This document shows, in pieces, positions 12,327-61,289 of a stretch of 64,000 bases of DNA (positions within the stretch are counted from its first letter, which is position 1; each line of letters opens with the position of its first letter). The position numbers were made by a program, and so were the translations under genes. Under the pieces are notes generated by a model. That model did not search any database. It saw nothing but the letters and a program-made list of their open reading frames with translations, and was not told where the DNA came from. Source of the stretch: an uncultured Acidobacteriota bacterium. GTDB taxonomy: Bacteria > Acidobacteriota > Vicinamibacteria > Vicinamibacterales > CAVPJW01. The stretch lies in the NCBI GenBank assembly GCA_963705525.1, contig CAVPJW010000004.1:448789-512788 (forward strand). The letters are read 5' to 3'.

Positions 12327-14272
12327 TCACCGGTTGCCCTGCGGCGCCGATTGAGATTGCGAAGGCTTCAGATATTCGTCGAACCAGGCCATCATGCGGC
12401 GCAGCAGGTCCAGAATGTGCGCCCGTTCCTCGAAGCCGTGGGGCTCGCGCGGATAGATGACGAGATCACTTCGCACGCCGTACCGCTTGAGGGCCCGGTA
12501 GAACGCCTGGCTCTGACCGAGGGGATCGACCGGGTCTTTCTCGCCGTGCAGAAGGAGGGTCGGCGTCCTGGCACGGCTGACGTAAGTCAGCGGCGAGCTC
12601 TTCGCAAAACCCTCGGGCCGCTCGTAGGGCAGGCCGTAGAACCATTCGTCGTACGCCGGATCCTGCTCGGTGCCGTATTCGGTGGCGAGATCCGACATCC
12701 CTGCTCCAGCAACCGCAGCGCGAAACCGGTTGGTTTGTGTCACCGCCCACGCCGCCATGTAGCCGCCGTACGACCAGCCGCCGATCCCCACGCGATCGCC
12801 ATCCACGACACCGGCCTTGACGAGATGGTCAACGCCGGCCATCACGTCCTTGAAATCGTCGCCTCCCCAGTCGCCCCGATTCATTTCGAGAAATGCCTGG
12901 CCGTACCCGCTCGAACCTCGGATGTTCGGCGACAGCACGACGTACCCGCGAGCGGCAAGAAGCTGTCCCCACGACTGAAAACTGTCCGACCAGCGGCCGG
13001 TCGGGCCACCGTGCACCAGGACGACGAGCGGCGGCCGGGCCACGGCGGCGCCCGACGCGGGTTTGAGCAGCATGGCTTCAATCTCCACTCCGCCCGCGCT
13101 CCGGTACTTGATGATCTCCGGCGCCGCAACGCCTGCGGGCTGCCACGCCGCATTGATGCTCGAGGCCTTTGCGACTGAGCCGTCGGTGCCGCGCAAGTAC
13201 ACCTCCGGCGCCCGCGTCGTCGTTTCTCCTACGAAAGCGATCGTTCCTTTGGACGACACCGCGACGGCCGACGGCATCACGTCGAGATCCGAGAGCCGCT
13301 CGACGCTCCCGTCGATCCGCACAACCCACTGCCGGGCCGTGAATCCGTCTTCGACGACGGCAAGGAGGGCTCCGTCGGATCGCCACGCGTAGGAGGTCAC
13401 AGGGCGATCGATCCGATTGCCGGTCAGGTTGGTGGCCGCACCCCCGCTGATCGGCTGGATGTAGAGGTCATGCGGTGAAGGTCCGTCCACTCTCGCACCG
13501 AGAAACGCGACGGTTCGGCCGTCCGGGGAAACGCTCGCATCTCCAATCGGACCCTTCGAGGTGCCAATCCATTTGGTGTCGCCTGTCTGAACATCGATGC
13601 TCGCCAGACGATCGGTGAACTGGTCCGATCCCGGCTTGTCGTTGACGATCGCCAGAAGTGGCCCGCCATTTGGCGGCCACTCGATCTCCGAGATCGCGCC
13701 ACCTCCTGAAGTGACCTGTCTCACGGCGCGCGTCTGCAGATTCACTGCCCAGACTTGCGGATGCGGATCATCGCGATCAACCACTCGCTCGTCGTCTTTT
13801 GCCTTCTCGAGCGCCTCGCGCTCCGGTGTCGGCGGAACCGCGGCAAGAAAGGCGATCGTCTGCCCGTCCGGCGCCCACGCGAAAGCCTGCACTGCGGACT
13901 TGGAACTGGTGAGCGCAACCGGCTCTCCGCCGGCGAGCGGCAAGAGATAGATCTGCGCGCGATCCACTCGGTCCGACAGGAACGCGAGCGTCTGACCGTC
14001 AGGCGACCAGCGGGCCGAACGATCCGACTTCTCGGAAGTGGTCACTCGCCGCGCCTTTCCGTCTTCGCAACGTCCAGTACCCAGACGTCTCGATCACGAC
14101 CCTGGGCTTCAGGTGGACCGGCCACCGTCATGGCGAGCTGTGATCCGTCGGGTGAGAAACGGAGGTCGGCGATCGACCGGCGGTCGATCGCCTGCTCAGG
14201 TGTGAGCTGAGCGGCCGCAATCCCACCGTTCGCGATCCACAACAGACCCGCCAGAACCATGTGTCGTCTCAT
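12327..14272 (-). pseudogene. S9 family serine peptidase (PD40 propeller + alpha/beta hydrolase), reading frame broken once near 14042-14047
   Basis: The 76-aa ORF (signal peptide + first blade LRFSPDGSQLA) and the 572-aa ORF (WSPDGQTLAF..., GGWSYGGYMAAW nucleophile elbow) abut as GGCGAGTGACCACT. They read as one protein if a single base is restored. Confidence 0.8.
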
Positions 14273-15656: not shown

Positions 15657-18003
15657 TTAGAACGCCACCTGAAATCCCAGACGCACCGTCCGGGGGATCG
15701 TGGGATGCGTGTGAATGTCGTCCACGCCCTCGAGTGGTTCACCCTGCAGGCGTGACGCATAGAAGTAGTCGATGTCGCTGTCTTTGGCGTCGAACAGGTT
15801 GAAGATGTCGAGCGCCACGCGCACGCGGTCGGAAATGGCGTAGCCGATCTGGCCGTTCACAAGACTGGTGGCATCCGAGCGAACGCTGTTGTCCTCGATG
15901 AGCGGACGCGGGCCAAAATAGCGGAGCCGAACACTGCCGAATACCCGGTGCTGTTGATCGATCGACATGCCCGCCGAGACGACAGTGTCCACGGCGCCCG
16001 AAATGCGATCGCCGGCCGGGTCGTCGTCCGTGAAGCGGGCGTTCGACCATGCCGCATCAAGATCGAACGTCAGCCACGGCTTCAGACTCACGTAGTTGGT
16101 CCACTCGACACCCTTGCGACGGCTTGGCCTGCTCGCTTCGGTCGTGCCCGCGTCACCGACAAAGAGCAGCTCTGACTCGATGCCCAGGCCCCAGATGGCC
16201 ACGGTGCTCTGAACGTGGGGAATCGCGACTGTCCGGACGCCGATTTCCGCTCCGCGCGCCCGCGCGAGCGGCGTCACACGCTGGACCGGCTCGCCCGTTG
16301 TCGGATCCACGGTGATCGTGGCGCCGCGCGCATCGTTGCTGTGAAATCCGTATCCGCCGTTGACATAGACCTCCGTCTTTCGCCATGGACCAAACGCGAC
16401 GCCAAACTTCGGACTGACTAAACCCGCAGTGTCTTTGCCCGAGTTCAAGGCGTTGTCATTGTCAACCTTGAACCGATAGATGTCTCCCCGCAGGCCCACC
16501 TGCGTGCGCACTTTGGTCGACAACTCGATTTCGTTCTGCGCGTAGAACGCCACCGAGGTCTGCAGCACCGAATCCTCGCGGACGGTGGACAGGCGTCGGC
16601 GCGCGCTGGTCTTGTAAAGCCCGACATTCGAGATATCGTCGTTCCGGAGCTGCACACCAAACAGGTTTTCGACGCGACGTCCGGCCCATCGAGTTTGACG
16701 ACGATGTGACGCGCGGAAGCCGGCGACGAAACGCTTGTCGGCCTGTTCGAACTGGTCGCCGTCGACCGGGTTGTCGAGGAAGTACGTGAAGTTCGAAAAG
16801 AGGTTCAACTTGTAGGCGAGGCCGTATGCCGTCAGATGGGACACGCTGTTGGCCTGAGCACGCTGGTAGTCCGCGGAGACGCTGTAGCGGTAGGTGCTCC
16901 CGCCATCGCTGTTGTCGATGAAACCAAATCGGGAAATGACGGCGGACTGGATGGCGCGATCGGGCACCTGATCGGTTGAATTCCAGGTCCCGTGTACCCA
17001 TCCCGGTTACCGAAAAAGCGTTCCGCGAGTCCCCACGGCTGTAGCCGAGGACCGCATTCACCTTCTCGTAGTCGTCCGGGAGCTCCCACGGACCGTCGTT
17101 GTGATTGAGCTCGAGCGCATAGAGCAAGTGTCCCGACCCGACGGACGGTGAACCGGCCCCGAGAAACCTTCCCCAGCCTTCCCCGCCAAAGCTGGCGCGG
17201 ACGATATTCCCATCGAGCACGTTCGCGTAGTTGATGTTGGCCGATCCTGCCGCCGAGAAGTCGCCCTGCTCGGCGAAGTACGGACCCTTGTTGTACTGCA
17301 CGCCGCTCACGAGCTCGGGTATCAGGAAGTTGGCATCAGCATAGCCGTGGCCGTGCGCATGTGTGGGCATGTTGACCGGCACGCCTGCCACGAATGTCGA
17401 GAAGTCGGTGCCGTGGTCGAGATTGAACCCTCGCAGGTAGTACTGGTTCGCTTTCCCCTCGCCGCTGTGCTGGCTGATGATCATCCCTGGGACCGTCTCC
17501 AGCACTTCGCCGGCCCTCATGATCGGACGCGTGTCGAACTGCCTGGCGGTCACCGCACCTTCGCTCGCCGCGTTGGCCAGGCCGACCAGGTTCTCTTCCG
17601 GGTTTGGCAGTTCGGCGAGGTTCCTGAATGTCAGCTTCCCCGTCACCGTGACATCCGCGTGGAGCGCCAGGTGCAGGACGGCGTCCGCCGTGACGTTTTG
17701 ATCGGCCAGCGTGATGCCGCGCCGTGCACCAGCAAAGTTGATCAGATCGAATGTCAGCTCGTATTGACCGGGCTTCAGCGCCTGGAACGCATAGGCGCCC
17801 GCCTCGTTGGTGGTGGCGCTCACGCGAGATCCCGCGACCTTGTCCAATAACTCGACCATCACGCCCGGTAGTACGCCGCCCGTTTCGTCGGTCACCCGAC
17901 CGGCCAGACGCGCGCCCTGAGCGAGTGCACCTGAACACAGACCAAGGCACACGACCGTGGCGAACGCCGCAACCGCCGCAGTGCGATTCAAGGGACGGGG
18001 CAT
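15657..18003 (-). pseudogene. TonB-dependent receptor with N-terminal carboxypeptidase-regulatory-like domain, frame broken once near 16980-16990
   Basis: The 513-aa ORF carries the signal peptide, the CarbopepD_reg-like domain (GRVTDETGGVLPGVMVEL) and the plug. The 436-aa ORF carries the barrel ending ...VRLGFQVAF. The junction reads ...AFSVTGMGT / GTWNSTDQVPDRAIQ in two frames. Confidence 0.85.
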
Positions 18004-35229: not shown

Positions 35230-36669
35230 GACTCAGGGGGCGCGCCCGGACGGGTCGCGGTGCGCCGCGGCCGGTAGACATGCGTGCTCTGACCAAAGAA
35301 GACCTCTGCGGCCTCCATCAGGGTCTCAGACAGCGTGGGATGGGGATGAATCGAGAGGCGGAGGTCATCGGCCGTGGCCCCCATCTCGACGGCGAGGACG
35401 CCTTCGGCGATCAGCTCCCCGGCGCCGGCCCCCACCAGGCCCACCCCCAACACGCGGCCGGTTTCCGGCTCGAGCACCAGCTTCGTGGTGCCATCCGTTC
35501 GATCGAGAGTCATGGCGCGGCCGGAGGCGCCCCACGGGAATTTGGCGATCTCGACCGCGCGCTTCTCCGCCGCGGCCTGAGCCTCGGTCAATCCGCACCA
35601 GGCGATCTCCGGATCGGTGAACACGACGGCGGGAATCGCGAGCGGTGCGAACACCGACTTGTGGCCCGCGATGGCTTCGACCGCCACGCGTCCTTCGTGC
35701 GACGCCTTGTGCGCGAGCATGGGTTCGCCGGCGACGTCGCCGATCGCGAAGATGGATGGTTCCGCGGTCCGACGCTGGCCATCAACCGTGATGAATCCCC
35801 GTTCGTCGCGTTCGACGCGCGTGCGCTCGAGGCCGGGGATTTGCGAGTTAGGCTTGCGGCCCACCGCGACGAGCACGCGATCGAACAGATCTTCGGACAC
35901 GGTGCCCGAGGATTCGAACGCGACGCGAATGCCCGCAGCCTCGTCCGTCATCCGCGTCACGCGCGTGCTCAGCATGACGCGCTTCGCCACCTTCTCCATG
36001 CGCCGGGCAAGGATGGCGACGAGGTCGCGGTCCACGCCGGGAAGGAGGCTGGGCATCATTTCAACAACAGACACCTCGGTCCCAAGCGCCGCATACACGG
36101 TCCCCAGTTCGAGGCCGATGTAGCCTCCGCCCACGACGAGCAGCGTGCGCGGGATGTCGGCCACGTCGAGGGCCGAGGTCGAATCCATGACGCGACGGCT
36201 GTCGGGCACGCCCGGGATCATCGAGGGTCGCGAGCCGGTGGCTAGAATCAGATGGTCGAAGGAAGCGGTCTCTTCGCCGGACGCGCCGCGCGTCCGAAGT
36301 GTGTGGGCATCGACGATCTCGGCGAGGCCCTGGACGAAGCGGACCTTCCGCTGCCGCGTCAGTTGGCCCAGCCCGCCGGTCAGCTTCTGCACCACTTCGT
36401 CTTTCCATGCGCGCAGTCGCGCCGCGTCGATCGACGGCGGTCCGAAACTGACCCCCCAGGCCGAGGCGTGACGCGCCTCGTTCAGCAAGCCTGCCGACAT
36501 GGAGGAGCGCCTTGGACGGGATGCACCCGCGATACAGGCACACGCCTCCAGGATTGATCTCGGGATCGACGAGCGTCACGCTGAGGCCGAGATCTGCGGC
36601 CAGAAACGCCGCCGCATAACCTCCCGGCCCGGCGCCGACGATCGCAACAGCGGTGGATGGGGTCGCCAT
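35220..36669 (-). pseudogene. lpdA: Dihydrolipoyl dehydrogenase (E3), frame broken once near 36497-36502
   Basis: The 5' ORF gives [22 protein letters not shown]...[18 protein letters not shown] (FAD site and redox disulfide). The 3' ORF continues (S)[10 protein letters not shown]... to the end. Removing one base from CATGTCGGCAGG restores LLHVAGLLNEA. Confidence 0.85.
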
Positions 36670-36753: not shown

Positions 36754-38112
36754 CTACGAGAGCCGGGTCAGAAAGAACGGCTGTTCCAGCGCGTCGACGA
36801 TCCACCGCACGAAGCGGATGGCATCGGCGCCGTCTATCACGCGGTGATCGTACGAGAGCGAGAGCGGCAGCACGAGTCGCGCCTGGAACTGACCGTTCAG
36901 AAACACCGGCTGCACGCTCGCGCGCGACAGGCCGAGGATGGCCACCTCCGGCGCATTGACGATCGGCGAGAAGAGCGTGCCCCCGATGCCGCCAAGGTTA
37001 CTGATGGTGAACGATCCGCCTTCCATGTCCTGAAGCGCGAGCTTCCGCGAGCGCGCCTTCTCGGCCGCCTGCGTCAGCTCGACGGCAATCTCGATCAGGT
37101 TCTTCCTGTTGACATCGCGAATGACGGGCACCAGCAGGCCGCGATCCGTGTCGACGGCCACGCCGATATGCGTGTACTTCTTGAGAACGATCTCCTCGCT
37201 CGCCATGTCCACCGACGAGTTGAACTGTGGAAACACGGCGAGCGCTTCGGCCACGACCTTGACCGCAATCGCCGTCACCGTCATGCTGCCGCCGGCCTCT
37301 TCCGCCCTCCTGGCAAGCCGCTTCCGAAGCTCCTCGAGATTCGTGATGTCGGCACGCTCGTGCTGCGTCACGTGCGGAATCGTCGCCCAGGCCTCACTCA
37401 GATGCTGCGCAGTCTTCCGCCTGATCCCGCTCATCGGCCTGCGCTCGATCTCGCCCCACTTCGTAAAATCGGGCAGCGGGACCGGCATCGCGGGAATCAC
37501 GGACACCGCTCCAGTGCCGCTGGCGATGATCGTCTTCGCGTGCGCTTTGACGTCCTCGATCGTGATGCGCCCGCCTGCCCCGCTGCCGCTGACCAGTGCG
37601 ACATCCACGCCGAGCTCGCGCGCGAGGCGGCGGACCGATGGGGCCGCCGGAGCAGACGACGCGGGTCGCGCCGGTCGTTCAGAGACCGGTCGAGGGACGC
37701 TCGTAATGTCAACGACTTCGCCACGTCTCGAACGCGAGGCTGATTCGGCGACGGGAGGATCGACGTCCGGCGAGGCCACCGGCGAGACAGCGACGGGACC
37801 CGCGGCCGTCTTCTGTGGCACAGGAGCGGCCACGCTCGTCTCGCGCGCGGCCGAGGGCGTCGCGCCAGCGCCGGCCGATCCATCGACCACCAGGATGACC
37901 TGTCCGACGGCGACCTTGTCGCCGGCCTTCACACGCAGATCGGTCACACGTCCCTCGGCAGAGGAAGGCACTTCGAGGGTCGCCTTGTCGGTCTCGAGCT
38001 CCAGGATCGGTTGATCGCGCGTGACGGCGTCGCCCGCCGCCACGAGGACGCGCAGCACGTCCCCGCCCGTGATGTTCTCGCCGAGTTCCGGCAGCCTGAC
38101 CTCGACGCTCAT
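36754..38112 (-). CDS. aceF: Dihydrolipoamide acetyltransferase (PDH E2)
   Basis: Lipoyl domain ELETDKATLEVPS, Ala/Pro linker, PSBD, and catalytic domain ending SLSYDHRVIDGA. Confidence 0.93.
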   Translation of the reverse strand: MSVEVRLPELGENITGGDVLRVLVAAGDAVTRDQPILELETDKATLEVPSSAEGRVTDLRVKAGDKVAVGQVILVVDGSAGAGATPSAARETSVAAPVPQKTAAGPVAVSPVASPDVDPPVAESASRSRRGEVVDITSVPRPVSERPARPASSAPAAPSVRRLARELGVDVALVSGSGAGGRITIEDVKAHAKTIIASGTGAVSVIPAMPVPLPDFTKWGEIERRPMSGIRRKTAQHLSEAWATIPHVTQHERADITNLEELRKRLARRAEEAGGSMTVTAIAVKVVAEALAVFPQFNSSVDMASEEIVLKKYTHIGVAVDTDRGLLVPVIRDVNRKNLIEIAVELTQAAEKARSRKLALQDMEGGSFTISNLGGIGGTLFSPIVNAPEVAILGLSRASVQPVFLNGQFQARLVLPLSLSYDHRVIDGADAIRFVRWIVDALEQPFFLTRLS

Positions 38113-40796
38113 GACGTGGCCGGGTTGGACTTCTCGGAATTGATACCGAGATCCTTGATCGCGCGCTCGACGACAGCTGCCGCCACCTGGCGGTCCCCCA
38201 GCAGTTCCGACAGCGTCGCAAGGACGACAAACCGCGCATCGACCTCGAAGAAGTCACGGAGCGCGCTTCGCGTTTCGCTGCGGCCGAATCCATCCGTGCC
38301 AAGTGCACGCAGCCGGCGCGGCAACCATCGGTCGATCGAATCGGGAAGGGCCTTGACGTAATCGGATGCGGCGACGAACACGCCCGGGGCGTTGGCCAGG
38401 CACTGAGTGACATAAGGAACGCGAGGCGTAGCGCCGGGATGGAGCATGTTCCACCGCTCGGCCGCGTGGCCATCGCGATAGAGCTCGCCGTAGCTGGTGA
38501 CGCTCCAGACATCGGCCGCGACGCCGTATGTCTCGAGCATCTGCTGCGCCTTGATCACTTCGGGAAGGATCGCCCCGCTGCCGAAGAGTTGCGCGCGAAG
38601 CGGCAGATCTCGCGGCGACTGGGAGAGCCGGTACATCCCCTTGAGGATGCCCTCACGGCAGCCTTCGGGCATCACCGGCATCTCGTACTGCTCGTTCATC
38701 ACCGTGAGGTAGTAGAAGATGCTTTCCTGCTCGCGATACATGCGGCGGATGCCGTCCTCGATGATGACCGCTATCTCATACGCGAAGGCGGGATCGTACG
38801 AGAGCACGTTCGGCACGGTGTACGCCAGCAGATGGCTGTTGCCGTCCTGGTGCTGCAGGCCTTCTCCAGCCAGCGTCGTGCGGCCCGAGGTTCCACCGAG
38901 CAGAAACCCGCGTGTCCGACAGTCGGCGGCGGCCCAGATGAGGTCGCCGATCCGCTGGAAGCCGAACATCGAGTAGAAGATGAAGAAGGGAATCATGTTG
39001 ATGCCGTGCGTCGCGTACGCCGTGCCGGCGGCGATGAACGACCCCATCGACCCGGCTTCCGTGATGCCCTCCTCGAGAATCTGGCCGTCGGTGGCCTCCT
39101 TGTAATAGAGCAGCGTCGCATGATCGACGGGCTCGTACAGCTGCCCGACGTGCGAGTAGATGCCCACCTGACGGAACAGCGCCTCCATACCGAAGGTCCG
39201 CGCCTCGTCTGGAACGATCGGGACGATGAGATTGCCGATGTCCTTGTCGCGAAGCAGCTTCGACAGCATGCGCACGAACACCATCGTGGTCGAGGCCGTG
39301 CGCCCTTCTGTGCCCTTGTGGAACTCGTCGAACACCCCCTCGAGCGGTGCGGTCAGCGGCTCGCACTTGACAGTCCGCTTCGGCGTGTAGCCGTTCAGCG
39401 AGCGCCGCCGCTCGCGCAAGTATTCGATCTCGGAGCTGTCGTCGGGCGGGCGATAGAACGGCGCCTGTGCAATCTCCGCGTCCGATACGGGGATGCCGAA
39501 GCGCGTGCGAAAGGCCTTCAGCTCTTCCTCGTTGAGCTTCTTCTGCTGGTGCGTGATGTTCTTGCCTTCCCCGCTCTCGCCGAGGCCGTATCCCTTGATG
39601 GTTCGCGCGAGGACGACGGTCGGCGATCCTCGATGCTCGACCGCCGCCTTGAACGCGTTATAGACCTTGATTGGATCGTGGCCGCCGAGGCTCATCTTCT
39701 TGAGCTGTTCGTCCGACAGATGGCGGACCATCTCGAGAAGACGCGGATCGGCCCCCCAGAAGTGCTCGCGGACGTACGAGCCCGACTCCACGGCATAGCG
39801 TTGATACTGCCCGTCAACGATCTCACCCATCCGCTTCACGAGCAGGCCGTCGTGGTCTTTGGCGAGCAACGGATCCCATTCACGTCCCCACAGCACCTTG
39901 ATGACGTTCCAGCCGGAGCCGCGGAAGATCGCCTCGAGCTCCTGGATGATCTGGCCGTTGCCGCGGACGGGCCCGTCGAGCCGCTGCAGGTTGCAGTTGA
40001 TGACGAAGATCAGGTTGTCGAGCTTTTCGCGCGCGGGCAGCGTGATGGCGCCAAGGGCCTCGGGTTCGTCCGTCTCGCCGTCGCCCAGGAACGCCCAGAC
40101 CTTCGAGTCCGTCGGACGCTTGAGGCCGCGATCCTCGAGATAGCGGTTGAACCGCGCCTGATAGATCGCCATCAGGGGGTTGAGTCCCATCGACACCGTC
40201 GGGAATTCCCAGAAGTCGGGCATCAGCCAGGGATGCGGGTAGGAGGACAGGCCGCCATTGCCCTTCAGTTCCCGCCGGAAATGCTCCAGCTGTTCGACCG
40301 ACAGACGTCCCTCGAGAAACGCGCGACCGTAGATGCCAGGCGAGGCATGCCCCTGAAAGTAAATGACGTCGCCATCGTGGTTGTCCCCCCGGCCCCGGAA
40401 GAAGTGATTGAAGCCCACCTCGTAGAGAGTGGCTGCAGAGGCGTAGGTCGAAATGTGCCCGCCGATGCCCTCCTCGGACCGATTGGCCTTCACGACCATG
40501 GCAAGAGCGTTCCAGCGGACGAGGCTCTTGATGCGACGCTCAACCTCGGAGCTCCCTGGCATGGGCGACTGGTCTTCGGCACGAATCGAATTGATGTAGG
40601 GGGTGTTGGCGGTAAACGGCAGGCTCACTCCGTTCATACGGGCGTGAATGCTCAGTTCCTGCAGGAGCCGGCCCACGCGGGCGGGTCCGCCGCTCTGGAG
40701 TACATAGTCGAGCGAATCGAGCCACTCGCGAGTCTCGACGGCGTCGAGATCCGCAGCGTCCTTGGGTGCCATGTTTCGCATCGGAATCTCTTTCAA
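38109..40796 (-). CDS. aceE: Pyruvate dehydrogenase E1 component (homodimeric AceE type)
   Basis: About 890 aa. ETREWLDSL, GGHISTYAS and GDGETDEPE blocks. ATGA overlap with E2. Confidence 0.95.
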   Translation of the reverse strand: MKEIPMRNMAPKDAADLDAVETREWLDSLDYVLQSGGPARVGRLLQELSIHARMNGVSLPFTANTPYINSIRAEDQSPMPGSSEVERRIKSLVRWNALAMVVKANRSEEGIGGHISTYASAATLYEVGFNHFFRGRGDNHDGDVIYFQGHASPGIYGRAFLEGRLSVEQLEHFRRELKGNGGLSSYPHPWLMPDFWEFPTVSMGLNPLMAIYQARFNRYLEDRGLKRPTDSKVWAFLGDGETDEPEALGAITLPAREKLDNLIFVINCNLQRLDGPVRGNGQIIQELEAIFRGSGWNVIKVLWGREWDPLLAKDHDGLLVKRMGEIVDGQYQRYAVESGSYVREHFWGADPRLLEMVRHLSDEQLKKMSLGGHDPIKVYNAFKAAVEHRGSPTVVLARTIKGYGLGESGEGKNITHQQKKLNEEELKAFRTRFGIPVSDAEIAQAPFYRPPDDSSEIEYLRERRRSLNGYTPKRTVKCEPLTAPLEGVFDEFHKGTEGRTASTTMVFVRMLSKLLRDKDIGNLIVPIVPDEARTFGMEALFRQVGIYSHVGQLYEPVDHATLLYYKEATDGQILEEGITEAGSMGSFIAAGTAYATHGINMIPFFIFYSMFGFQRIGDLIWAAADCRTRGFLLGGTSGRTTLAGEGLQHQDGNSHLLAYTVPNVLSYDPAFAYEIAVIIEDGIRRMYREQESIFYYLTVMNEQYEMPVMPEGCREGILKGMYRLSQSPRDLPLRAQLFGSGAILPEVIKAQQMLETYGVAADVWSVTSYGELYRDGHAAERWNMLHPGATPRVPYVTQCLANAPGVFVAASDYVKALPDSIDRWLPRRLRALGTDGFGRSETRSALRDFFEVDARFVVLATLSELLGDRQVAAAVVERAIKDLGINSEKSNPATS

Positions 40797-49597: not shown

Positions 49598-49779
49598 ATC
49601 CAACCTGGACAGCCGTGGTGCCCGGTCGGCGGGGACAAATGCCCGCCCACTGGAAAACCAGCAGGAAACAGCCGAGATTTGGCTATGATCGTGCCCGAAC
49701 TCAGACTGGCCGTCATCCGTCCTGTCCCGTTCGGGACGCGGCTGGGCGGCACCCGAGTGTCCTGTCGTCAAGGAGAGCG

Positions 49780-51900
49780 ATGCGTATGCACGCACCGATC
49801 AAGTACGTCGAAAAAGGCGTGAGCGTAGCGGCCAACGGGGCCTGGTCCGTCTTTCAGTTCCTGAACAGTTTCAACCAGCGGCCATCGTTCATCCCGAAGT
49901 GGTCGGAGAAGCCCCTTCTGAAGTCGTACGAGAAGACCAAGCCGCCGCTCGGCTGGCCCCGCCAGACCGATTCGCTCTGTCCCGTCTGCGTGCGCGAAGC
50001 TCGTCAGGAGATTCTCGACGGCAAGAAGGATGTCAGCATCCTCCTGAACGAGAAGGTCGGCGAGATCAAGGCGACCATTCTCGAACGCGACGGCAAGATC
50101 CTGATGGTCAAGGACTGCCCGATTCACGGCCACTTCGAAGACGTCATGGCCATCGACACCGCGTTCTTCAAGCACCTCGAAGAGGTGTTCCCGGGACGCG
50201 ACATCCGCGCGCACAACGACGAGACGCTCCACAACCACGGCAGCAGCACCATCAAGCACGGACGCGGCTCGGTGCTCACCGTGGATCTGACGAACCGCTG
50301 CAACATGATGTGCGACCCCTGCTTCATGGACGCGAACCAGGTCGGGTTCGTCCACGAGCTCTCGTGGGAAGACATCCAAATGGTGCTGGACAACGCGATC
50401 AGCATCAAGCCGCGGCGCCAGATGTCGGTGCAGTTCTCCGGCGGCGAGCCGACGATCTCGCCGTATTTCCTCGACGCGGTGCGGTATGCGCGCAAGGTGG
50501 GCTACAACAGCGTGCAGGCTGCCACCAACGGCATCGAGTTCGCCAAGAGCCCTGAGTTCGCCAAGGCCGCCGCTGAGGCGGGGCTTCGCTACGCTTACCT
50601 GCAGTTCGACGGCATCGGCAACGCCGCCAATTCGCATCGCCGCGTCGGCAACCTCTTCGACGTGAAGCTGCGTGCGATCGAGAATTTGTACAACGCCGGC
50701 GTCGACATCGTGCCGGTCGTCACGATCGTCAACGGCGTGAACAACGAGCAGGTCGGTCGGATCATCGAGTTCGCGCTCGACAACCCGAAGAAGATCAACT
50801 TCCTCTCGTTCCAGCCGGTGAGCTTCACCGGCCGTGACGAGGAAATCACCGACGAGCGGCGTCACGCGCAGCGCTACACGCTGTCGCACCTCGCCCACGA
50901 CGTGAAGAACCAGACCGGTCTGGGCGAACCCACCCGCGACTGGTTCCCCATTTCCTTCATGGGCACCTTCACCGACTGGGCCGACGTCGTCCATGGACCG
51001 GACACGCAGTGGGGTCAGCTGACCTGCGGCTGCCATCCGAACTGCGGCGTCGGCATGGGTGTGATGATCGACAAGGAAACGAAGGAGGCCGTCCCCGTGA
51101 CGGCGTTCCTGAAGGCCGAGCAGCTGGCCAAGGACCTCGCGAAGGTCAACGACGCGGCCCGTGGCAAGTTCCTGTCGGTCGTGGGACTCGCCCTCGCGGT
51201 CGTCCGCAACTATGACCCGTTCAAGTCGCCGACGCACTTCAAGCTCACCGACCTCTTGAAGAAGTTCGACAAGACGTTCGGGGCGACGAAGAAGGCGCAG
51301 TCGGGTGGCTACGGCAAGGTCGAAGGCGATCGGACGGCGGACGACATCGCGAAGCGCCGCGCCGACCGCTGGAACTTCCTGTTCATCGCAGGCATGTGGT
51401 TCCAGGATCTCTTCAACTACGACTTCCGCAGGACGGAGATGTGCATCATCCCGTACGCCACGCAGCAAGGCGAGATTTCGTTCTGCGCCTACAACACGGG
51501 GATCGGGTGGCGGAACATCATCGAGAAGATGCACATGACGGCCACACTGACGAAGTGGTACGAGGAGCACGGCCGCCACGAGATCTTCGCGGGCGGCAAG
51601 AGCGTGCAGCTCGAGTCGAAGAATCATTCGCTGGCGCTCAACCCGGTCGCCGTGGCGGCGGGTGAGCAGCAGGACCTCGTCCTGGCCGGCGTCGCACGCA
51701 ACGCACGCGAGGAGAAGATCGCCGCGCGGGCGCGAACGCACGAGAAAGACCTCGAAGGCAGCCTGAAGGACGCGGCGCACCACCGCCAGATGGAGCAGCT
51801 CTACCGGCAGCATGTGCTGAAGGAGGCACCGGCCCCTCCCGTCATTCAGATTGCGGGACTCAAAGGCACGCCGAAGCCCGAGCCGACCACCGTCGGCTGA
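49780..51900 (+). CDS. tes: Radical SAM protein of the tetraether lipid synthase (Tes / GDGT-MAS, MJ0619) family
   Basis: AGGAGA lies 4 nt before the ATG. CPVC...DCPIHGH N-terminal Cys/His knuckle. TNRCNMMCDPC (CX3CX2C, nt 50299..50322). QFSGGEPT, ATNG, YLQFDG, SFQPVSFTGR, CGCHPNCG and the C-terminal CIIPYATQQGEISFCAYN. 706 aa. Confidence 0.85.
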   Translation: MRMHAPIKYVEKGVSVAANGAWSVFQFLNSFNQRPSFIPKWSEKPLLKSYEKTKPPLGWPRQTDSLCPVCVREARQEILDGKKDVSILLNEKVGEIKATILERDGKILMVKDCPIHGHFEDVMAIDTAFFKHLEEVFPGRDIRAHNDETLHNHGSSTIKHGRGSVLTVDLTNRCNMMCDPCFMDANQVGFVHELSWEDIQMVLDNAISIKPRRQMSVQFSGGEPTISPYFLDAVRYARKVGYNSVQAATNGIEFAKSPEFAKAAAEAGLRYAYLQFDGIGNAANSHRRVGNLFDVKLRAIENLYNAGVDIVPVVTIVNGVNNEQVGRIIEFALDNPKKINFLSFQPVSFTGRDEEITDERRHAQRYTLSHLAHDVKNQTGLGEPTRDWFPISFMGTFTDWADVVHGPDTQWGQLTCGCHPNCGVGMGVMIDKETKEAVPVTAFLKAEQLAKDLAKVNDAARGKFLSVVGLALAVVRNYDPFKSPTHFKLTDLLKKFDKTFGATKKAQSGGYGKVEGDRTADDIAKRRADRWNFLFIAGMWFQDLFNYDFRRTEMCIIPYATQQGEISFCAYNTGIGWRNIIEKMHMTATLTKWYEEHGRHEIFAGGKSVQLESKNHSLALNPVAVAAGEQQDLVLAGVARNAREEKIAARARTHEKDLEGSLKDAAHHRQMEQLYRQHVLKEAPAPPVIQIAGLKGTPKPEPTTVG

Positions 51901-54102: not shown

Positions 54103-54195
54103 AGTTCTTAGTGCTCAGTTCTTTGTGCTTAGGGTGCCAAAGAACGAAGCAATGAGCAGCGCACCAAGAACTGAGCACCAAGCACTAAGAACTAC
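54103..54195. repeat. Periodic hairpin of heptads between convergent genes
   Basis: AGTTCTT AGTGCTC AGTTCTT TGTGCTT AGGGTGC ... GCACCAA GAACTGA GCACCAA GCACTAA GAACTAC. The outer 13 bp, AGTTCTTAGTGCT / AGCACTAAGAACT, are perfectly complementary. Confidence 0.88.
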
Positions 54196-55043
54196 TGGTA
54201 TTCATAAAACCCCCTTCCACTCTTCTTCCCCAGCCTGCCGGCCAGCACCATTCGCTTGAGGAGCGGCGGCGGTGCATAGGCAGGCTCGCGAAACTCTTCG
54301 AACATGATGTTGGCGATGTAGTACGTCGTGTCGAGGCCGACGAAATCGAGCAGCGTGAACGGTCCCATCGGATAGCCACATCCGAGCTTCATGCCCTTGT
54401 CGATGTCCTCGAGCGAGCCGAGCCCATACTCGTAGGCGCGGACCGCCTCGAGCAGATACGGCACCAGCAGTCGATTCACGATGAAACCCGGGCGATCCGG
54501 CGCGGTGATCGGCTCCTTCCCCAGCGACTGCGCAAACGCAAAGACGACCTTGTAGGTCTCGTCGCTGGTCGTCAGGGCGCGGATGACCTCGACGAGCTTC
54601 ATGAGCGGCACCGGGTTGAAGAAGTGCAGCCCCGCGAATCGATCGGGCCGCTTCGTCGCCGCCGCCAGCTCGGTAATGCAGAGCGACGAGGTATTGGAGA
54701 CGATGATGGTGCCGGGCTTGACGGCGGCTTCGAGCGCCGCGTAGGTGCGCCTCTTCTCGTCGAGGTTTTCGACGATCGCCTCGATGACGATGTCGCAGTC
54801 CTTCATTGCGGCAAAGTCCGTGACCCCTGAAAGGTTGGCCAGCGTATGCTCGCGAACCTCGCTCGCGACTTTCCCTCGCGCGACGCCGTCGCTCAGGAAC
54901 TTGTCGATGCGGCCCAGCCCCTTCTTCAACACCGCATCATCCACTTCGCGGACGATGGTCTTGTAGCCAGCCTGAGCCGACACCTGGGCGATGCCGGCGC
55001 CCATCAATCCGCAGCCCAGTACTCCGACGGTTTTGATTTCCAT
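54192..55043 (-). CDS. hbd: 3-hydroxybutyryl-CoA dehydrogenase
   Basis: VGVLGCGLMGAGIAQV, HFFNPVPLMKLVEV and GFIVNRLL blocks. Confidence 0.93.
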   Translation of the reverse strand: MEIKTVGVLGCGLMGAGIAQVSAQAGYKTIVREVDDAVLKKGLGRIDKFLSDGVARGKVASEVREHTLANLSGVTDFAAMKDCDIVIEAIVENLDEKRRTYAALEAAVKPGTIIVSNTSSLCITELAAATKRPDRFAGLHFFNPVPLMKLVEVIRALTTSDETYKVVFAFAQSLGKEPITAPDRPGFIVNRLLVPYLLEAVRAYEYGLGSLEDIDKGMKLGCGYPMGPFTLLDFVGLDTTYYIANIMFEEFREPAYAPPPLLKRMVLAGRLGKKSGRGFYEYQ

Positions 55044-55172: not shown

Positions 55173-56365
55173 TCACTTTTCGACATCGATGAGCGCCGCG
55201 ATTCCCTGTCCTCCGCCAATGCAGGCCGTGGCGATGCCACGACGCCTACCCCGCCGGCGAAGTTCGAGAAGCAGCGTCAGGATCAGACGCGTACCGGTCA
55301 TGCCGAGCGGGTGACCGAGCGCGATGGCGCCGCCGTTGACGTTCACCTTGTCGCGATCGAGGCCGAGCTCCTTCTCGACCGCGAGGTACTGCGCCGCAAA
55401 GGCCTCGTTGACCTCGATGAGATCGATGTCGTCGAGCGACAGCCCCGCGCGTTCCAGCAACCTTCGAGTGGCCGGCGCGGGACCCATACCCATTAGAGAC
55501 GGCTCGACGCCGACGACGGCCCAGCCGGTCAAGCGACCGAGCGGCTTCAGCCCTCGCCGTTCAACCGCCTTGGCGGACGCGAGCAGAAGCGCCGCGCCGC
55601 CATCGACGATGCCGCTGGCGTTGCCTGCGGTCACGCCGCCTTCCTTGGAAAATGCCGGCGGCAGCTTCGCGAGCGTCTCGAGGGTCGTGTCCGGGCGCAG
55701 ATGATCGTCCCGGGAAAATACGTCCACGCCTTTCCTGGTCTTGATCTCAACCGCGACGACCTCTTCGGCGAGCCGTCCTTCATTCCAGGCGCGCGCGGCG
55801 AGCTGCTGGCTCCGAAGCGCATAGCAGTCCTGCTCCTCGACGCGAGATGCCGTACTTCGCCGCGCAGTTCTCGGCGGTGCCCGCCATCGTGCAACCCGCA
55901 CTGCGTGTCGAGCAGACCCTCCCAGAGCGTGTCTTCGAGCTTGCCCTGTCCCAGCCGGAGGCCGCCCCGCAGTCCGCGAATGACGTGCGGCGCCTGACTC
56001 ATGCTCTCCATGCCGCCGGCGAGCACGATCTCCGCCTCGCCGAGCAGGATCATCTGTGCACCGCTCACCGCGGCTTGAATGCCCGATCCGCACAGCCGAT
56101 TCACCGTGAGGGCCGGCACCTCGATCGGCAGCCCCGCTTTGAGCGCGACATGACGGGCGCCGTAGAGGGCGTCGGGACTCGTCTGCAGGACGTTGCCGAA
56201 GACGACGTGATCGACCCATTCAGGCTCCACACCGGTCCGTGCGAGGGCGCCGCGCGAGGCGATGGCTCCCAGCTCGATCGCCGACACATCCTTGAGCGCG
56301 CCGACGTACGACGCCATCGGCGTCCTGGCGCCCCCCACGATGAACACATCCTGAGACATGGACAT
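55173..56365 (-). pseudogene. Acetyl-CoA C-acyltransferase (thiolase), two frameshifts (about 55839-55841 and 55888-55891)
   Basis: Three frames read MSMSQDVFIVGGARTPM...[10 protein letters not shown]...DTQCGL / [15 protein letters not shown] / [12 protein letters not shown]...[17 protein letters not shown]...CIGGGQGIA. Each junction is fixed by removing one base. Confidence 0.85.
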
Positions 56366-56393
56366 GGCTCCCTTGCTTCCGCCTTCCGATGGA

Positions 56394-57463
56394 TCAGCCT
56401 GCCGTCTTCCGGGCGTCCCGAATCGACCTGGCGATGCCGTCGCCCGTTTCGGTCGTGCCGAGACGGCCGCCGGCGTCGGCCGTGACACGGCCAGACAGCA
56501 CAGCGTCCTTGACAGCGTGCTCGACCGCCGCGGCTTCCGTTCCGAGGCCAAGGAACTCCAGCATCAGAGCCGCCGACAGGATGGCGCCAATCGGATTCGC
56601 CACGTTCTTGCCGGCAAACTTCGGCGCCGATCCGTGCACGGGCTCGAACATCGACGTGCGTCCCGGATGCAGGTTGCCGGACGCCGCCATGCCCAGCCCG
56701 CCCTGAAGCGGCGCGCCCAGATCCGTGATGATGTCGCCGAACAGATTGTTCGTGACGATGACCTCGAACTGCGACGGGATCCTTCACCAGGAACATCGCA
56801 AGCGCGTCGATGTAGACGTGCGTCGCGGCGATGTCCGGATACTCGGCTGACACTTCCTTGAACACGCGCTGCCAGAGCGCGTGGCCCTGCGGCCATGGCG
56901 TTGCTCTTGTCGGCCATGCACACCTTGCGTCGGCCCGTCTGTCGCGCGAACTCGAAGGCGTGCCGGACGATGCGATGCACACCCTTGTAGGTGTTCACCT
57001 CTTCCTGGATCGCGATCTCGTCGTCGGTTCCCGCCTTGAAGCGGCCGCCGATGCCGACATAGAGGCCCTCGGTGTTCTCGCGGAACACGACGAAGTTGAC
57101 GTCCTCGGGGCGCGCGACCCTTGAGCGGACACAGGCGCTCGTCGAGCAGGCGCACGGGACGGTAGTTGACGTACAGATCGAGCTCGAAGCGCGTGCCGAG
57201 CAGGATGTCGCGCGCGTGCCGCTTGTCGGGCACGCGCGGATCGCCGAGCGCGCCGATGAAGATCGCGTCGAATTCGTCGCGCAGCATGGCGTAGCCGTTG
57301 GGCGGCAGCGTGATGCCGGTCTGCAGGTAGTGGTCCGCGCCCACGGCAGCAAGTCGAGATCGAACGAGCGGCCGAACACGTCGCCGACGGCCCGGAGGAC
57401 CTTGACGGCTTCCGCCGTGACGTCCTTGCCGATCCCGTCACCGGGGATGACGGCGATTCGCAT
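56394..57463 (-). pseudogene. Tartrate dehydrogenase / 3-isopropylmalate dehydrogenase family enzyme, four frameshifts
   Basis: Segments [15 protein letters not shown]...LLPW / GADHYLQTG...CPLKGRAP / [16 protein letters not shown]...DKSNAM / GHALWQRVF...LVKDP / [19 protein letters not shown]...[19 protein letters not shown] lie in alternating frames. Junctions are near 57344, 57108, 56888 and 56775. Confidence 0.85.
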
Positions 57464-57500
57464 GATTAGTCGGCCGTACGAAACATCACGCCTTGAACCG

Positions 57501-58706
57501 TCAGACACGCTCGATCGCCAGCGCCATGCCCATCCCGCCGCTGACGCAGAGCGTCGCGAGCCCGCGACGCGCTGACGCCGCTCGAGCTCGTGCAGGAGCG
57601 TGACGACGATGCGGGCGCCGGTGCAGCCGATCGGATGGCCGAGCGCGATGGCGCCGCCGTTCACGTTCAGCCGCTCGGGCGCAATCGGCACGTCGCGGAG
57701 CACCGCGAGCACCTGCGGTGCAAACGCTTCGTTCAGCTCGACCAGATCGAAGTCGTCGAGGCCGAGCTGCGATCGCTCGAACAGCTTTCGCATCGCCGGC
57801 ACAGGACCGATCCCCATGATGCGCGGGTCGACGCCGGCGCTCGCCCAGCCAAGAATGCGCGCGCGCGGCGTCAGCCCGCGCGCGACCGCCGCGCTGCGGC
57901 TCGCCAGAACGACCGCCGCGCCGCCGTCGGTGATGCCCGAGGACGATCCCCGCCGTGATGATGCCGGGCTGTCCCTCGACATCGCCGAAGACGGGCGGAA
58001 GCTTCCGCAGGCTCTCGATCGTCGTATCGGGCCGCGGGTGCTCGTCGCGCTCCACCACGGTCGGCCTGCCCTTGGCGTCGGCGACCGTGACCGGCGCGAT
58101 CTCGCGGGCGAATCGACCCTCCGCGGCTGCGCGAGCCGCACGCCGCTGACTCTCGAGCGCATACGCATCGGACTCCTCGCGCGTGATGCCGTATTGACGC
58201 GCCAGCACCTCGGCGGTCTCGCCCATGATCAGTCCGGACAGCGGACAGTGGAATCCGTCGCGGTACATCGCGTCCACGAGCGGGAAGTTGCCCATCCGTG
58301 GCCCCACCGCGCGTCCTCGGAATCGAGCAGATACGGCATGCGGCTCATCGACTCGATGCCGCCGGCCAGCACGAATGTCGATTCGCCCAGCTGGATCTGT
58401 TGAGCGCCTGACACGATCGCCTGCAGGCTCGACGCGCAGGCCTTGTTGATCGTCTGGGCAGGAACCGAGACTGGAATGCCGGCGCGATGACCGACCTGCC
58501 GCGCGGGATTGGGACCGGAGCCCGCCTGGCGCCCGTGACCAATCAGAATGTCGTCGAGATCGGTCTCCCTCGAGGCGGGATCGCTCGAGAGCGGCCCGCG
58601 CCGCCACCGCGCCGAGCTCGGCGGGATGGACCGCGCGAAAGGCGCCGCCATATCGCCCGATCGGCGTTCGAGCAGCGCCCAGGATCACGACCTCAGGATG
58701 TGCCAT
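57501..58706 (-). pseudogene. Acetyl-CoA C-acyltransferase (thiolase), four frameshifts
   Basis: Segments MAHPEVVILGAARTPIGRYGG...AALERS / DPASRETDLDDILIG...INKACASSLQA...DARWG / PRMGNFPLVD...GIITAG / [11 protein letters not shown]...[17 protein letters not shown]...LHELERR / [23 protein letters not shown]. Junctions are near 58585, 58303, 57945 and 57573. Confidence 0.85.
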
Positions 58707-58753
58707 GACGGATGACGATCGCCGGCAGGCGCGAACAGTGACCTCGGAACGGT

Positions 58754-60268
58754 TCAGACCTCCGTCGGGTCAATCTGCGCGCGCTGCAGCTTGCCGCTGA
58801 AGTCCACGTAGACGGATTTCCACTCCGAGAAGACATCGAGCGCGGCAGTACCTGCCTCGCGGTGTCCGTTGCCCGTCGCCTTCGTCCCCCCGAAAGGCAG
58901 GTGCACTTCGGCACCGATCGTCGGCGCATTGACGTAGAAGATGCCGGTGTAGAGATCCCGCATCGCCGTAAAGGCCGAATTGATGTCCTGCGTGTAAATG
59001 GACGCCGACAGCCCGTACTGGACGCCGTTGCCTATCTCGATCGCCTCTTCGAGCGAACCGCACGGGATGACCGAGACAACCGGACCGAAGATCTCGTCCT
59101 GCGCGATCCTCATCTTGGGGCTGACGTCGGCAAAAACCGTCGGCTCGTGGAAATAACCGTTCTTGTGCGCGCCCTGGTCGAGCGCATGTCCGCCGGCTGC
59201 AAGTGTCGCCCCCTCACGTTTGCCGATTTCGACATACTCCTTCACAGTTTCGAGCTGACTTGCACTGACCACCGGACCCATCTGAGTCGACGCGTCGAGC
59301 CCGTCGCCGACGCGCAGCGTGCGCGCCCGCGCCACGAACTTGTCGACGAACTGACGGTACACGTCGCGGTGCACGACGACGCGGCTTGCCGCGGTGCAGC
59401 GCTGGCCGGCAGTGCCGAAGCCGCCCCAGAGGCAGCCGTCGACGGCGAGGTCGATCGAGGCGTCCGACATCACCATGATGACGTTCTTGCCGCCCATCTC
59501 GAGGTGCACTTTCTTGAAATCCGGTGCACCCCGCTCAGACACCGTGCGCCCCACGCTGGTCGAACCGGTAAACGACACGACTCTGACCGACTGGTCAACG
59601 ACCATGGCCGTGCCGACTTCGTCGCCCCCCCCGGTTACCAGATTCACGACGCCGGCCGGAATCCCGGCATCCTCGAGGACCTTGACGAAATTGACCGCCG
59701 AGAGCGGCGTCAACGTCGCCGGCTTGAACACGACCGTGTTTCCGCAAATCAGCGCGGGAATAATCTTCCAGGACGGAATCGCCATCGGGAAATTCCAGGG
59801 CGTGATGATCGAGCACACGCCCAGCGGCTGCCGCACGGACATCGCAAACTTGTCGCGCAGCTCCGATGGCACCGTCTGCCCGTACTGGCGCCGGCCCTCG
59901 CCGGCGATGAAATAGGTCATATCGATGGCTTCCTGGACGTCTCCCCGCGTCTCATCCAGGACCTTCCCCATCTCGCGGGTCATCTCCCGGGCAAACTCCT
60001 CTTTCCGCTGAATGAGGAGTTCGGCGGCCCGGAACAGCAGCTCCGCCCGCTTGGGTGCCGGCACGAGACGCCATTTCTCATAGGCGGCACGCGCGGCCTC
60101 GAGCGCCGCCTGCACATCCTTGCGCGTGGACCGCTGGAATAGCCCAACCAGGTCGTCCGTGTTCGCCGGATTCTTGTTTTCGAACACTTCCCCGGAGGCT
60201 GCAGGTACCCAAGATCCGCCGATAAAGTTGTTGTACGTGGTCACTCGCGTGTTGGTTGTCACTGGCAT
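58754..60268 (-). CDS. Aldehyde dehydrogenase family protein
   Basis: Intact 504-aa [36 protein letters not shown] and GQRCTAASR blocks. Confidence 0.92.
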
Positions 60269-60531: not shown

Positions 60532-60919
60532 ATGATCGCGGCACCTGACACCACCACTCGCGAGAAACACGTCGCCACCACGCAGCGCGTGGTGATCGTC
60601 AACGGCAACGGTGACGTGCTCGAGCAGCTTGAAACGGTGCTCGATGCGGGCCACTACGACGTCAGTCTTCGTCGAGTCTGTTGATCACGCGTACTCGCAG
60701 GTCAAGCGCCTGCGGCCGAACCTCATCATCCTCTGCGTGCACATCGAAGACCTGGACGGATTCCAGGTTTTGTCGATGCTCAAGATGGACGAGGAGACGG
60801 CCGATATCCCGGTTTTGACCTACACCACGGAATATGAAGGGCAGGACGTCGAAGGCCAGATCCCACGGCGGGCCGAAGACGATTCGCTCCTGCGACGACC
60901 GAGCCTGCGGATGAACTGA
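60532..60919 (+). pseudogene. Single-domain receiver-like (pseudo-receiver) protein, one frameshift near 60660-60668
   Basis: GGAGGAAAAGGCATG start context. QRVVIVNGNGDVLEQLETVLDAGHYDV / VFVESVDHAYSQVKRLRPNLIILCVHIEDLDGFQVLSMLK...IPVLTYT lies in two frames. The acidic pocket DD is NG here, and Cys occupies the phospho-acceptor position. Confidence 0.55.
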
Positions 60920-60935
60920 CCGCCCCTGCGCGGGA

Positions 60936-61289
60936 ATGTCCGACCCTCACGACCACGGGCGTGCCGCCGAGCGAATCGAGATACTGGGCGATCTCGCGGG
61001 CGAGGTGCAGATCCTTCAACCCGTATCAATCAAAGAAATCAGCGTCACGGGAGCGCAGGTCGAATCGACGTTCCCGCTGCACGTCGATTCGCTGCACGAG
61101 TTCCGCCTGATGCTCGGCGGTCAGCCGGTCGTCGTCCACGGAATCGTGGCGCACTCGAGCATCAGCGAAGTGGAAGCGGAGCAGGTGCTCTACCAATCAG
61201 GAATCCAATTCGTCGAAATGCCCCCTCGCATTCGAGAGGTGGTCGAGCGCTTCATCGAGGCGTTGAAGGCGGCGCGGGCACGGTCTTGA
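60936..61289 (+). CDS. PilZ domain protein
   Basis: RAAER (RxxxR) followed about 25 aa later by EISVTGAQV ([D/N/E]xSxxG). 117 aa. Confidence 0.68.
   Translation: MSDPHDHGRAAERIEILGDLAGEVQILQPVSIKEISVTGAQVESTFPLHVDSLHEFRLMLGGQPVVVHGIVAHSSISEVEAEQVLYQSGIQFVEMPPRIREVVERFIEALKAARARS

Follow-up and report, generated by a model that had tools for sequence, protein, structure and literature searches.

Our analysis indicates that a cluster of ten frameshifts in the window (the whole stretch of DNA analysed, 64,000 nucleotides from an uncultured soil bacterium of the Acidobacteriota) is almost certainly an artefact, and thus an ordinary finding, rather than gene decay. The frameshifts lie in three adjacent genes, two for thiolases and one for a dehydrogenase between them, and very probably reflect a stretch of roughly 3 kb of low-quality, long-read-type consensus. 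The organism most likely has all three genes intact. A preliminary description had favoured a localised sequencing or assembly error, and this reading is supported by lesions that are indels only, by repaired proteins that are perfectly conserved, by a lesion of the same type in the dihydrolipoamide dehydrogenase (E3) gene elsewhere, and by relatives, which look alike when assembled from Nanopore reads only and are clean when assembled from short reads.

The ten indels and the genes that carry them

The indels were mapped by three-frame translation of the minus strand and nucleotide alignment to the intact orthologous locus of a relative, L001 (JGI contig Ga0533583_0010392), and the letters of the window were re-read directly at three sites (indels 2, 3, and 6). 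Exactly ten net single-base indels, seven insertions and three deletions, were found inside the three adjacent genes. This reproduces the ten frameshifts with intact flanks described previously, and none of the junctions proposed then is more than about 21 bases away from an aligned indel. The earlier statement that the lesions are all of one base holds for all ten. No in-frame stop or multi-base indel was found within the three coding regions (1152 codons). Six or seven of them are within runs of 2–4 identical bases, and three are outside runs.

Thiolase C (acetyl-CoA C-acyltransferase family; 57501..58706, minus strand; about 400 aa when repaired) contains four single-base indels, and its frame path on the minus strand is 1, 2, 1, 2, 1. 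Indel 1 is an insertion at 58564..58566 whose exact base is ambiguous. At indel 2 (58298..58299) one base is lost, CC being read as C, where L001 has GGGGCCACCGG and the window has GGGGCCACGG. The GGGG run at 58302–58305, in which this junction had been placed, does exist, but what has been lost is a C at 58298, just downstream of the run. Indel 3 is an extra G in GGGG (57948..57951), the removal of which gives ITAGSSSGI, and indel 4 is a one-base deletion at 57570..57571. The repaired protein matched TIGR01930 over residues 8–398 with 457.7 bits (cut-off 240.55), and its orthologue in L001 is intact with 401 aa.

The second gene, of the isocitrate/isopropylmalate dehydrogenase family (PF00180; 56394..57463, minus strand; 355 aa when repaired), also contains four single-base indels. 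Indel 5 is a deletion at 57340..57342 (GGG for GGGG, the expected codons being TGG GGC, W G); indel 6 is an extra C in CCCC (57107..57110); indel 7 is an insertion in a GG, CC, or GGG run, ambiguous within about 15 bases (56880..56894); and indel 8 is an extra C in CCC (56776..56778), the removal of which gives VKDPSQFEV. The closest sequence among 5.8 billion protein clusters is an intact protein of 355 aa (P0001), to which the repaired protein is 87% identical. With 403.3 bits against NF002898 (cut-off 393), it scores above the curated equivalog cut-off for 3-isopropylmalate dehydrogenase and is, by profile score, a putative member of that family. The gene had been called tartrate/IPM-dehydrogenase-like. 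The second part of this name agrees with the profile result, but tartrate dehydrogenase appears unsuitable, since the scores with both tartrate models are below their cut-offs (347.6 against 470.4 for TIGR02089, and 333.1 against 501 for a second model).

Thiolase A (BktB-like acetyl-CoA C-acyltransferase family; 55173..56365, minus strand; about 396 aa when repaired) contains two single-base insertions. Indel 9 is an extra T (TT) at 55893..55894, the removal of which gives QCGCTMAGT and restores Cys 158; indel 10, at 55836..55840, is outside any homopolymer. Its score with TIGR01930 is 472.7 bits, above the same cut-off. In both repaired thiolases the Cys/His/Cys motifs are recognisable and intact, and neither protein reached the own cut-off of any equivalog model in the profile search. 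The downstream gene, for 3-hydroxybutyryl-CoA dehydrogenase (hbd; 54192..55043, minus strand; 283 aa), and the upstream gene, for aldehyde dehydrogenase (58754..60268, minus strand; 504 aa), are both intact, with 95% and 97% identity to L001, respectively.

Frameshifts elsewhere in the window

Four isolated frameshifts were identified outside the cluster: one of −1 in an S9 peptidase gene with an N-terminal beta-propeller (14040..14065, minus strand), and three of +1 in the genes of a TonB-dependent receptor (16976..17006, minus strand), E3 (36485..36505, minus strand), and a response-regulator receiver (gene at 60547–60862, frameshift at 60660..60670, plus strand). When these sites (near 14050, 16990, 36495, and 60665) are repaired, one Pfam domain crosses each junction: propeller matches at residues 33–142 and 62–127 span the junction near residue 71, PF00593 (residues 312–737) that near residue 333, PF07992 (residues 7–326) that at residue 58, and PF00072 (residues 20–106) that at residue 44. 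The frameshifted E3 gene sits downstream of those for E1 and E2 in a pyruvate-dehydrogenase-type operon. Five further frameshifts had been counted before; the four that were listed are real, but scanning the window from end to end with a codon model did not reveal a fifth. This hidden Markov model detects only seven of the ten events in the cluster, as it overlooks segments of fewer than about 50 codons. One frame switch that it called, at 27210/27330, proved to be an ordinary gene boundary, with a TetR-family regulator on one side and lipoyl synthase on the other.

Ten of the 14 events lie inside 2.73 kb of the 64 kb, much more densely than chance would produce (P < 5e-9; scan-statistic upper bound 4.6e-9, with none of 2,000,000 simulations as extreme). 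The indel rate is about 1 per 270 bases (0.37%) in the patch versus a background of about 1 per 15 kb. Insertions make up ten of the 14 events. The presence of the same type of lesion at four other sites, including the E3 gene, indicates that the assembly carries such lesions generally.

The sequence itself does not explain why the affected stretch was hit. The density of homopolymers (runs of 3, 4, and at least 5) is average or below that of the window, and GATC, CCGG, GGCC, CCWGG, and GANTC occur there as often as expected; an impression that GATC adjoins three of the sites was dropped after this count. The GC content of the region is moderately high (0.66–0.69), and the maximum of the window is at 57–58 kb.

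Repaired proteins and orthologous loci

In an alignment with 120 homologues, the repaired dehydrogenase showed no deviation at any column with at least 95% conservation, against a mean of 2.2 for intact homologues and 8 for the closest of these. Similarly, both repaired thiolases showed no deviation at columns invariant in 10–11 orthologues (10 for thiolase C), while each intact orthologue showed 1–20. When six outgroups are used to polarise the amino-acid changes in the three genes, 23 fall on the lineage of the window and 54 on that of L001. The preliminary description had proposed a dN/dS calculation; pairwise values for the three repaired genes are 0.06–0.11, without excess amino-acid change, the codon-level comparison being valid without hbd, in which L001 has an in-frame stop.

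In bacterial mutation accumulation, indels make up about one tenth of neutral mutations. On this assumption ten indels would be accompanied by 50–100 substitutions, about 18–36 of them at invariant residues, and none of the latter was observed; the chance of finding no stop under the same assumption is 0.04–0.3. Repaired proteins free of stops, larger indels, excess change, and any departure at invariant or highly conserved positions are incompatible with neutral decay lasting long enough to collect ten indels. Two marks of pseudogenes, relaxed constraint and a mixed lesion spectrum, were not seen in the three repaired genes: conserved residues are kept with no excess of non-synonymous change, and the lesions are exclusively indels of one base.

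The genes belong to a block conserved in Vicinamibacterales, in the order aldehyde dehydrogenase, thiolase, Iso_dh-family dehydrogenase, thiolase, and 3-hydroxybutyryl-CoA dehydrogenase. The window has the same order and the same repaired lengths as eight related loci (L001, L002, L003, L004, L006, L021, L025, and L034). Frame disruptions within the block were found only in the window, from thiolase through dehydrogenase to thiolase, and in a Nanopore MAG, L005, from dehydrogenase through thiolase to hbd. Several relatives lack part or all of the block beside the aldehyde dehydrogenase gene. Amino-acid identity to L001 is 87–91% for the three broken genes and 95–97% for the flanks. A hypervariable locus was considered and rejected: in each of the close pairs compared, no gene of the block is as well conserved as that for aldehyde dehydrogenase, so that the difference is no special signal. 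Look-ups of the exact protein sequences of both intact flanking genes gave no match. The best aldehyde dehydrogenase among the genome matches listed has 81% identity, and the best dehydrogenase among the metagenome matches listed has 82%.

Comparison with the orthologous locus, which had also been proposed, showed unshifted frames in relatives assembled from short reads and shifts at other places in L005. In every one of the 80 metagenome relatives listed, and in the syntenic loci of short-read genomes, the dehydrogenase is a single tblastn segment or is cut only by a contig end. We then compared two control sets. In 19 loci (408 kb) from MAGs assembled from Nanopore reads only and polished once with Medaka (PMC12313526), 15 frame switches were called, of which several form clusters (L005, L034, and L036). 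In 52 short-read loci (910 kb), whose class was taken from contig names, the codon-model scan found no real frame switch; in L027, L031, and L046 it placed one about 450 bases upstream of the gene for aldehyde dehydrogenase, at what is an ordinary boundary between the genes of a response regulator and a PilZ protein. L005 itself (on contig CAVOIY010000003.1; affected stretch L005:11500–15800) has about seven insertion-biased frameshifts over dh-thlA-hbd (six of seven are insertions, as read from tblastn tiles) and one deviation in 491 invariant columns, a signature like that of the window, although none of its frameshift positions is shared with the window. If the frameshifts are artefacts, a second cluster at the orthologous locus is a coincidence, whose chance we estimated at roughly 1 in 5 and which keeps some weight against that reading.

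Origin of the cluster

We propose that the source assembly has a residual background of single-base indels of about 1 per 15 kb, as a long-read-only or incompletely polished assembly would, and we infer the platform accordingly. A patch of 3.7 kb or less, bounded by the ends of the genes for 3-hydroxybutyryl-CoA dehydrogenase and aldehyde dehydrogenase, would have been called from very few reads or from reads that disagreed with one another, and the clustering would probably be due to reduced effective depth or agreement of the reads there. Raw single-read sequence would be expected to bring several substitution errors at invariant residues, and none was seen, so that on this reading the error process must have been strongly indel-biased. 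Frameshifting indels have been documented in low-coverage long-read MAGs (PMC9262707; proovframe preprint 10.1101/2021.08.23.457338). As with the residual indels of Nanopore or PacBio CLR assemblies, those of the window are single-base, split otherwise perfectly conserved genes, come with background events, and are not accompanied by substitutions, and they may resemble them also in lying partly in short homopolymers. However, such indels are usually uniform, whereas in the window they are strongly concentrated, although L005, L034, and L036 have clusters too, of smaller size. The shortness of the homopolymers involved, the sites outside runs, and the lack of a sequence feature that explains the location are points that we counted against consensus error.

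The lesions could instead be genuine and very recent, with ten real one-base indels accumulated in a redundant, decaying operon or introduced by a local burst of indels from error-prone repair. The clustering is indeed real and extreme, the flanking genes are clean, the orthologous locus of L005 is hit in a similar way, and a block that several relatives lack may be dispensable; moreover, frameshift pseudogenes in bacteria undergoing reductive genome evolution also occur as adjacent genes with multiple disruptions each between intact neighbours. The window differs from them in having no stops, deletions, loss of conserved residues, or raised amino-acid change, the lineage of the window having in fact changed less than its sister lineage, although hits after the first frameshift would be neutral and should bring about ten times as many substitutions. 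Bacterial indel mutation is usually biased toward deletion, opposite to the 7:3 ratio of insertions to deletions found here. In addition, housekeeping genes elsewhere in the window carry the same type of lesion, and the lesions of L005 are at other positions in a Nanopore-only assembly. Genuine inactivation is consequently very unlikely, and the recent decay of a redundant operon, which had been suggested as compatible with the data, is disfavoured by the absence of the accompanying substitutions, stops, and larger indels. More improbable still are real indels left by a local burst, for instance in a patch of error-prone repair synthesis, that very recently knocked out a block prone to such bursts in the lineage of L005 as well, as a locus-specific indel hotspot would be.

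Consensus error could also have arisen from mixed strains, if reads of two or more co-occurring close relatives were collapsed and the polisher emitted the bases of both alleles wherever these differ densely; this would yield mainly insertions and give the localisation a specific cause. Insertions predominate both in the window and in L005, some lie where the codon of L001 differs (for example near 55838 and 56894), divergence from L001 is greater in the three genes than in the flanks, and microdiversity limited MAG recovery according to the Microflora Danica paper. But the aldehyde dehydrogenase is so regularly the best conserved gene of the block that this divergence is nothing special, and most of the excess falls on the branch of L001. 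We regard this sub-type of artefact as possible, though on balance rather unlikely. Collapsed paralogues had been suggested because the thiolases are related; confusion during assembly or polishing might involve the two thiolases or another genomic copy, and the dehydrogenase is indeed flanked by two genes of one family. Yet the two thiolase genes align over only 426 bases with 68.5% nucleotide identity (about 50% between the proteins), no other DNA similar to the region was found in the window, and the dehydrogenase, which has no paralogue here, holds four of the ten indels; this origin is hardly credible. As for programmed frameshifting or another form of recoding that restores the frames during expression, nothing speaks for it beyond the frame changes themselves. 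It would have to act at ten sites, in both directions, and in three genes, while short-read orthologues are in one frame there and L005 is shifted at other residues. The unshifted orthologues effectively refute it, and its probability is close to nil.

Consensus error thus being favoured over decay, the consequence named earlier for the case of real frameshifts, that the window lacks any functional thiolase for the box and butyryl-CoA pathways, should not be drawn. Annotation at face value would leave both thiolases and the dehydrogenase missing and make metabolic reconstructions wrong; the three genes are to be treated as intact, and frameshift-aware gene calling, or polishing, is required for this assembly. 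The approach also offers a reusable test that requires no reads: lesions that are all single-base indels, together with no departure from invariant positions after repair, point to an artefact rather than to decay.

Frame-broken genes of the thiolase block

Three-frame translation and family models placed three adjacent frame-broken genes on the minus strand of the window (GC ~64%): thiolase C (58706-57501), a gene of the isocitrate/isopropylmalate dehydrogenase family (57463-56394), and a second thiolase, thiolase A (56365-55173). They are flanked by an intact aldehyde dehydrogenase gene (58754-60268) and an intact 3-hydroxybutyryl-CoA dehydrogenase gene (hbd; 54192-55043). The nearest relatives of the window are soil-derived uncultured Vicinamibacterales (Acidobacteriota). 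The block (window 55173-60268) is conserved throughout this order and consists of aldehyde dehydrogenase, thiolase, Iso_dh-family dehydrogenase, thiolase, and 3-hydroxybutyryl-CoA dehydrogenase. The gene order is the same in eight relatives' loci (L001, L002, L003, L004, L006, L021, L025, and L034), where the genes are uninterrupted except for a stop in L001 hbd and a frameshift in the L034 aldehyde dehydrogenase. It is unusual to find an isopropylmalate-dehydrogenase-like enzyme with a thiolase on either side. The dehydrogenase scored above the cut-off of the NCBI 3-isopropylmalate dehydrogenase model (403 vs 393 bits) and under those of the tartrate dehydrogenase models.

At each junction listed in the preliminary description the gene continues in another frame. 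Nucleotide alignment to L001, the orthologous locus of the closest relative (JGI soil contig Ga0533583_0010392, 84.6% identity), resolved every one as one net single-base gap, in agreement with the 1-base indels proposed. Seven bases are extra in the window (~58564, 57948-57951, 57107-57110, ~56880-56894, 56776-56778, 55893-55894, and ~55838) and three are missing from it (58298/9, 57570/1, and 57340-57342); three of the ten sites were also checked by direct re-reading of the sequence. Runs of 2-4 identical bases occur at 6-7 of the sites (short homopolymers had been noted at several), and 3 sites lie outside runs. The coding regions of the three genes contain no further gaps and no in-frame stops, again as described. 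After repair the genes encode ~400, 355, and ~396 aa, in line with orthologues of 401, 355, and 394 aa. The reported clustering between intact flanks also held: 10 of the 14 single-base events of the window are confined to 2.73 kb (scan-statistic bound 4.6e-9), a concentration reached in 0 of two million simulations. The frameshift observation is thus confirmed in full.

Single-base events elsewhere in the window and in other assemblies

The four isolated frameshifts were tested by one-base repair followed by a search for a Pfam domain spanning the junction. All four are real, as first described, with a single domain spanning each repaired junction: the S9 peptidase beta-propeller (~14050), the TonB receptor barrel (~16990), Pyr_redox_2 of dihydrolipoamide dehydrogenase (E3; minus strand, 36485-36505, ~36495), and a response-regulator receiver (plus strand, +1, 60665). 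They are of the same type as the ten clustered ones. The broken E3 gene lies directly downstream of E1 (38124-40790) and E2 (36757-38253) in a pyruvate-dehydrogenase-type operon, and the best reading of its frameshift is a further consensus error. When a self-trained codon model was used to segment the window from end to end, no additional candidates survived inspection. A short response-regulator gene and, after it, a PilZ-domain gene are conserved beside the aldehyde dehydrogenase (window 60547-61289, plus strand; L027:9166-9803; L031:9152-9786), and the codon model makes false frameshift calls there because the boundary between the two genes is close.

As an external control, the same frame-switch caller was run on loci fetched around aldehyde dehydrogenase orthologues. 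The Nanopore-only set (19 loci, 408 kb) was drawn from the MAGs of Microflora Danica, assembled with Flye and given a single Medaka polish (PMC12313526). Of its 15 calls, several form clusters of 2-3 kb (L005, L034, and L036), and tblastn tiling confirmed the L034 aldehyde dehydrogenase frameshift and the L005 events. The comparison set (52 loci, 910 kb), whose short-read class was assigned from contig names, gave 3 calls, all at one conserved response-regulator/PilZ gene boundary; since this is a normal boundary, none is real. The small call clusters outside L005 fall at unrelated genes of Nanopore-only MAGs (L034:8617-10185, L036:6546-8510, and L045:1143-1443). This points to patchy indel errors as a common trait of Nanopore-only assemblies, and frameshifting indels are known in long-read MAGs under ~40-fold coverage (PMC9262707; proovframe preprint).

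L005 (CAVOIY010000003.1, MFD10113.bin.2.70) is the clearest case of the error signature among the Nanopore loci. About 7-8 mostly +1 frameshifts run across its dehydrogenase, thiolase A, and hbd genes (L005:11579-15750) and probably take in a TPR gene as well, bounded by intact aldehyde dehydrogenase and GTP cyclohydrolase I genes. The repaired proteins show 1 deviation in 491 invariant columns. The genes hit are orthologous to those of the window, at other residues. From the cluster frequency in Nanopore loci, the chance of such an overlap is estimated at roughly one in five, so two error patches have probably come to lie on the same genes by coincidence.

Consensus error or gene decay

The ten frameshifts are very probably an artefact of the local consensus. 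Localised sequencing or assembly error, the preferred reading of the preliminary description, agrees with the presence of one-base lesions only, the conservation of the repaired genes, and the same lesion type elsewhere in the window and in Nanopore-only MAGs. The frameshifts fit a class already known, residual consensus indels in long-read assemblies, but neither pseudogene decay nor programmed frameshifting. Genuine recent inactivation of the three genes, offered as the fallback, appears most improbable, because ten indels' worth of drift should also bring substitutions. Indels make up about one tenth of neutral mutations in bacterial mutation-accumulation work, so that 50-100 substitutions are expected alongside ten indels; with about half of all columns invariant, ~18-36 changes of invariant residues are predicted, and none was observed. 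The repaired dehydrogenase has 0 deviations at columns at least 95% conserved among 120 database homologues, vs a mean of 2.2 in intact homologues and 8 in the closest relative. At columns invariant in 10-11 orthologues, repaired thiolase C has 0 deviations; thiolase A shows 1, which is lost on correct removal of the extra T at 55893/4, while intact thiolase orthologues have 1 to 20 each. No stops are present, although a random substitution in these codons would produce one in 2.4-3.2% of cases, and pairwise dN/dS to L001 is 0.06-0.11. Polarisation of the amino-acid differences with six outgroup orthologues assigned 23 lineage-specific changes in the three genes to the window (several at approximate junction joins) and 54 to L001; for the intact flanks the counts were 5 and 8. 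Moreover, lesions that are all exactly one base and insertion-biased are not the spectrum of natural decay. With the three gene breaks read as artefact, the earlier inference that the window lacks any functional thiolase should be dropped. L001 is not a perfect reference either, given the 8 deviations of its dehydrogenase at highly conserved columns and the in-frame stop in its hbd (L001:5729-6586), which is called as two genes of 75 and 195 aa.

As to why this stretch was affected, no property of the sequence itself accounts for it: homopolymer density in the region is at or below average, common methylation-type motifs show no enrichment, and GC is raised only moderately, 57-58 kb being the GC maximum of the window. 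Paralogue collapse, raised before because the two thiolases are related, or cross-mapping between them, is unsupported: thiolases C and A are far too unlike (68.5% identity over 426 bases), and the window holds no second copy of the region. At the indel rate of the patch (3.7 per kb), the chance of an indel-free gene is e^-5.6 for the aldehyde dehydrogenase (1.5 kb) and e^-3.1 for hbd (0.85 kb); the flanking genes would rarely be clean by chance, so the limits of the patch are sharp. We infer that consensus error over ~3 kb at ~0.37% indels fits a patch whose consensus would draw on a very small number of long reads or on a mixture of strains.

Elsewhere in the window, 49615-51900 (plus strand) encodes a 761-aa radical SAM protein similar to Tes, the tetraether lipid synthase of archaea; its score against NF045702 (Tes), 314.8 bits, is under the cut-off of 450. 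The protein may bear on membrane-spanning lipid synthesis in Acidobacteriota.
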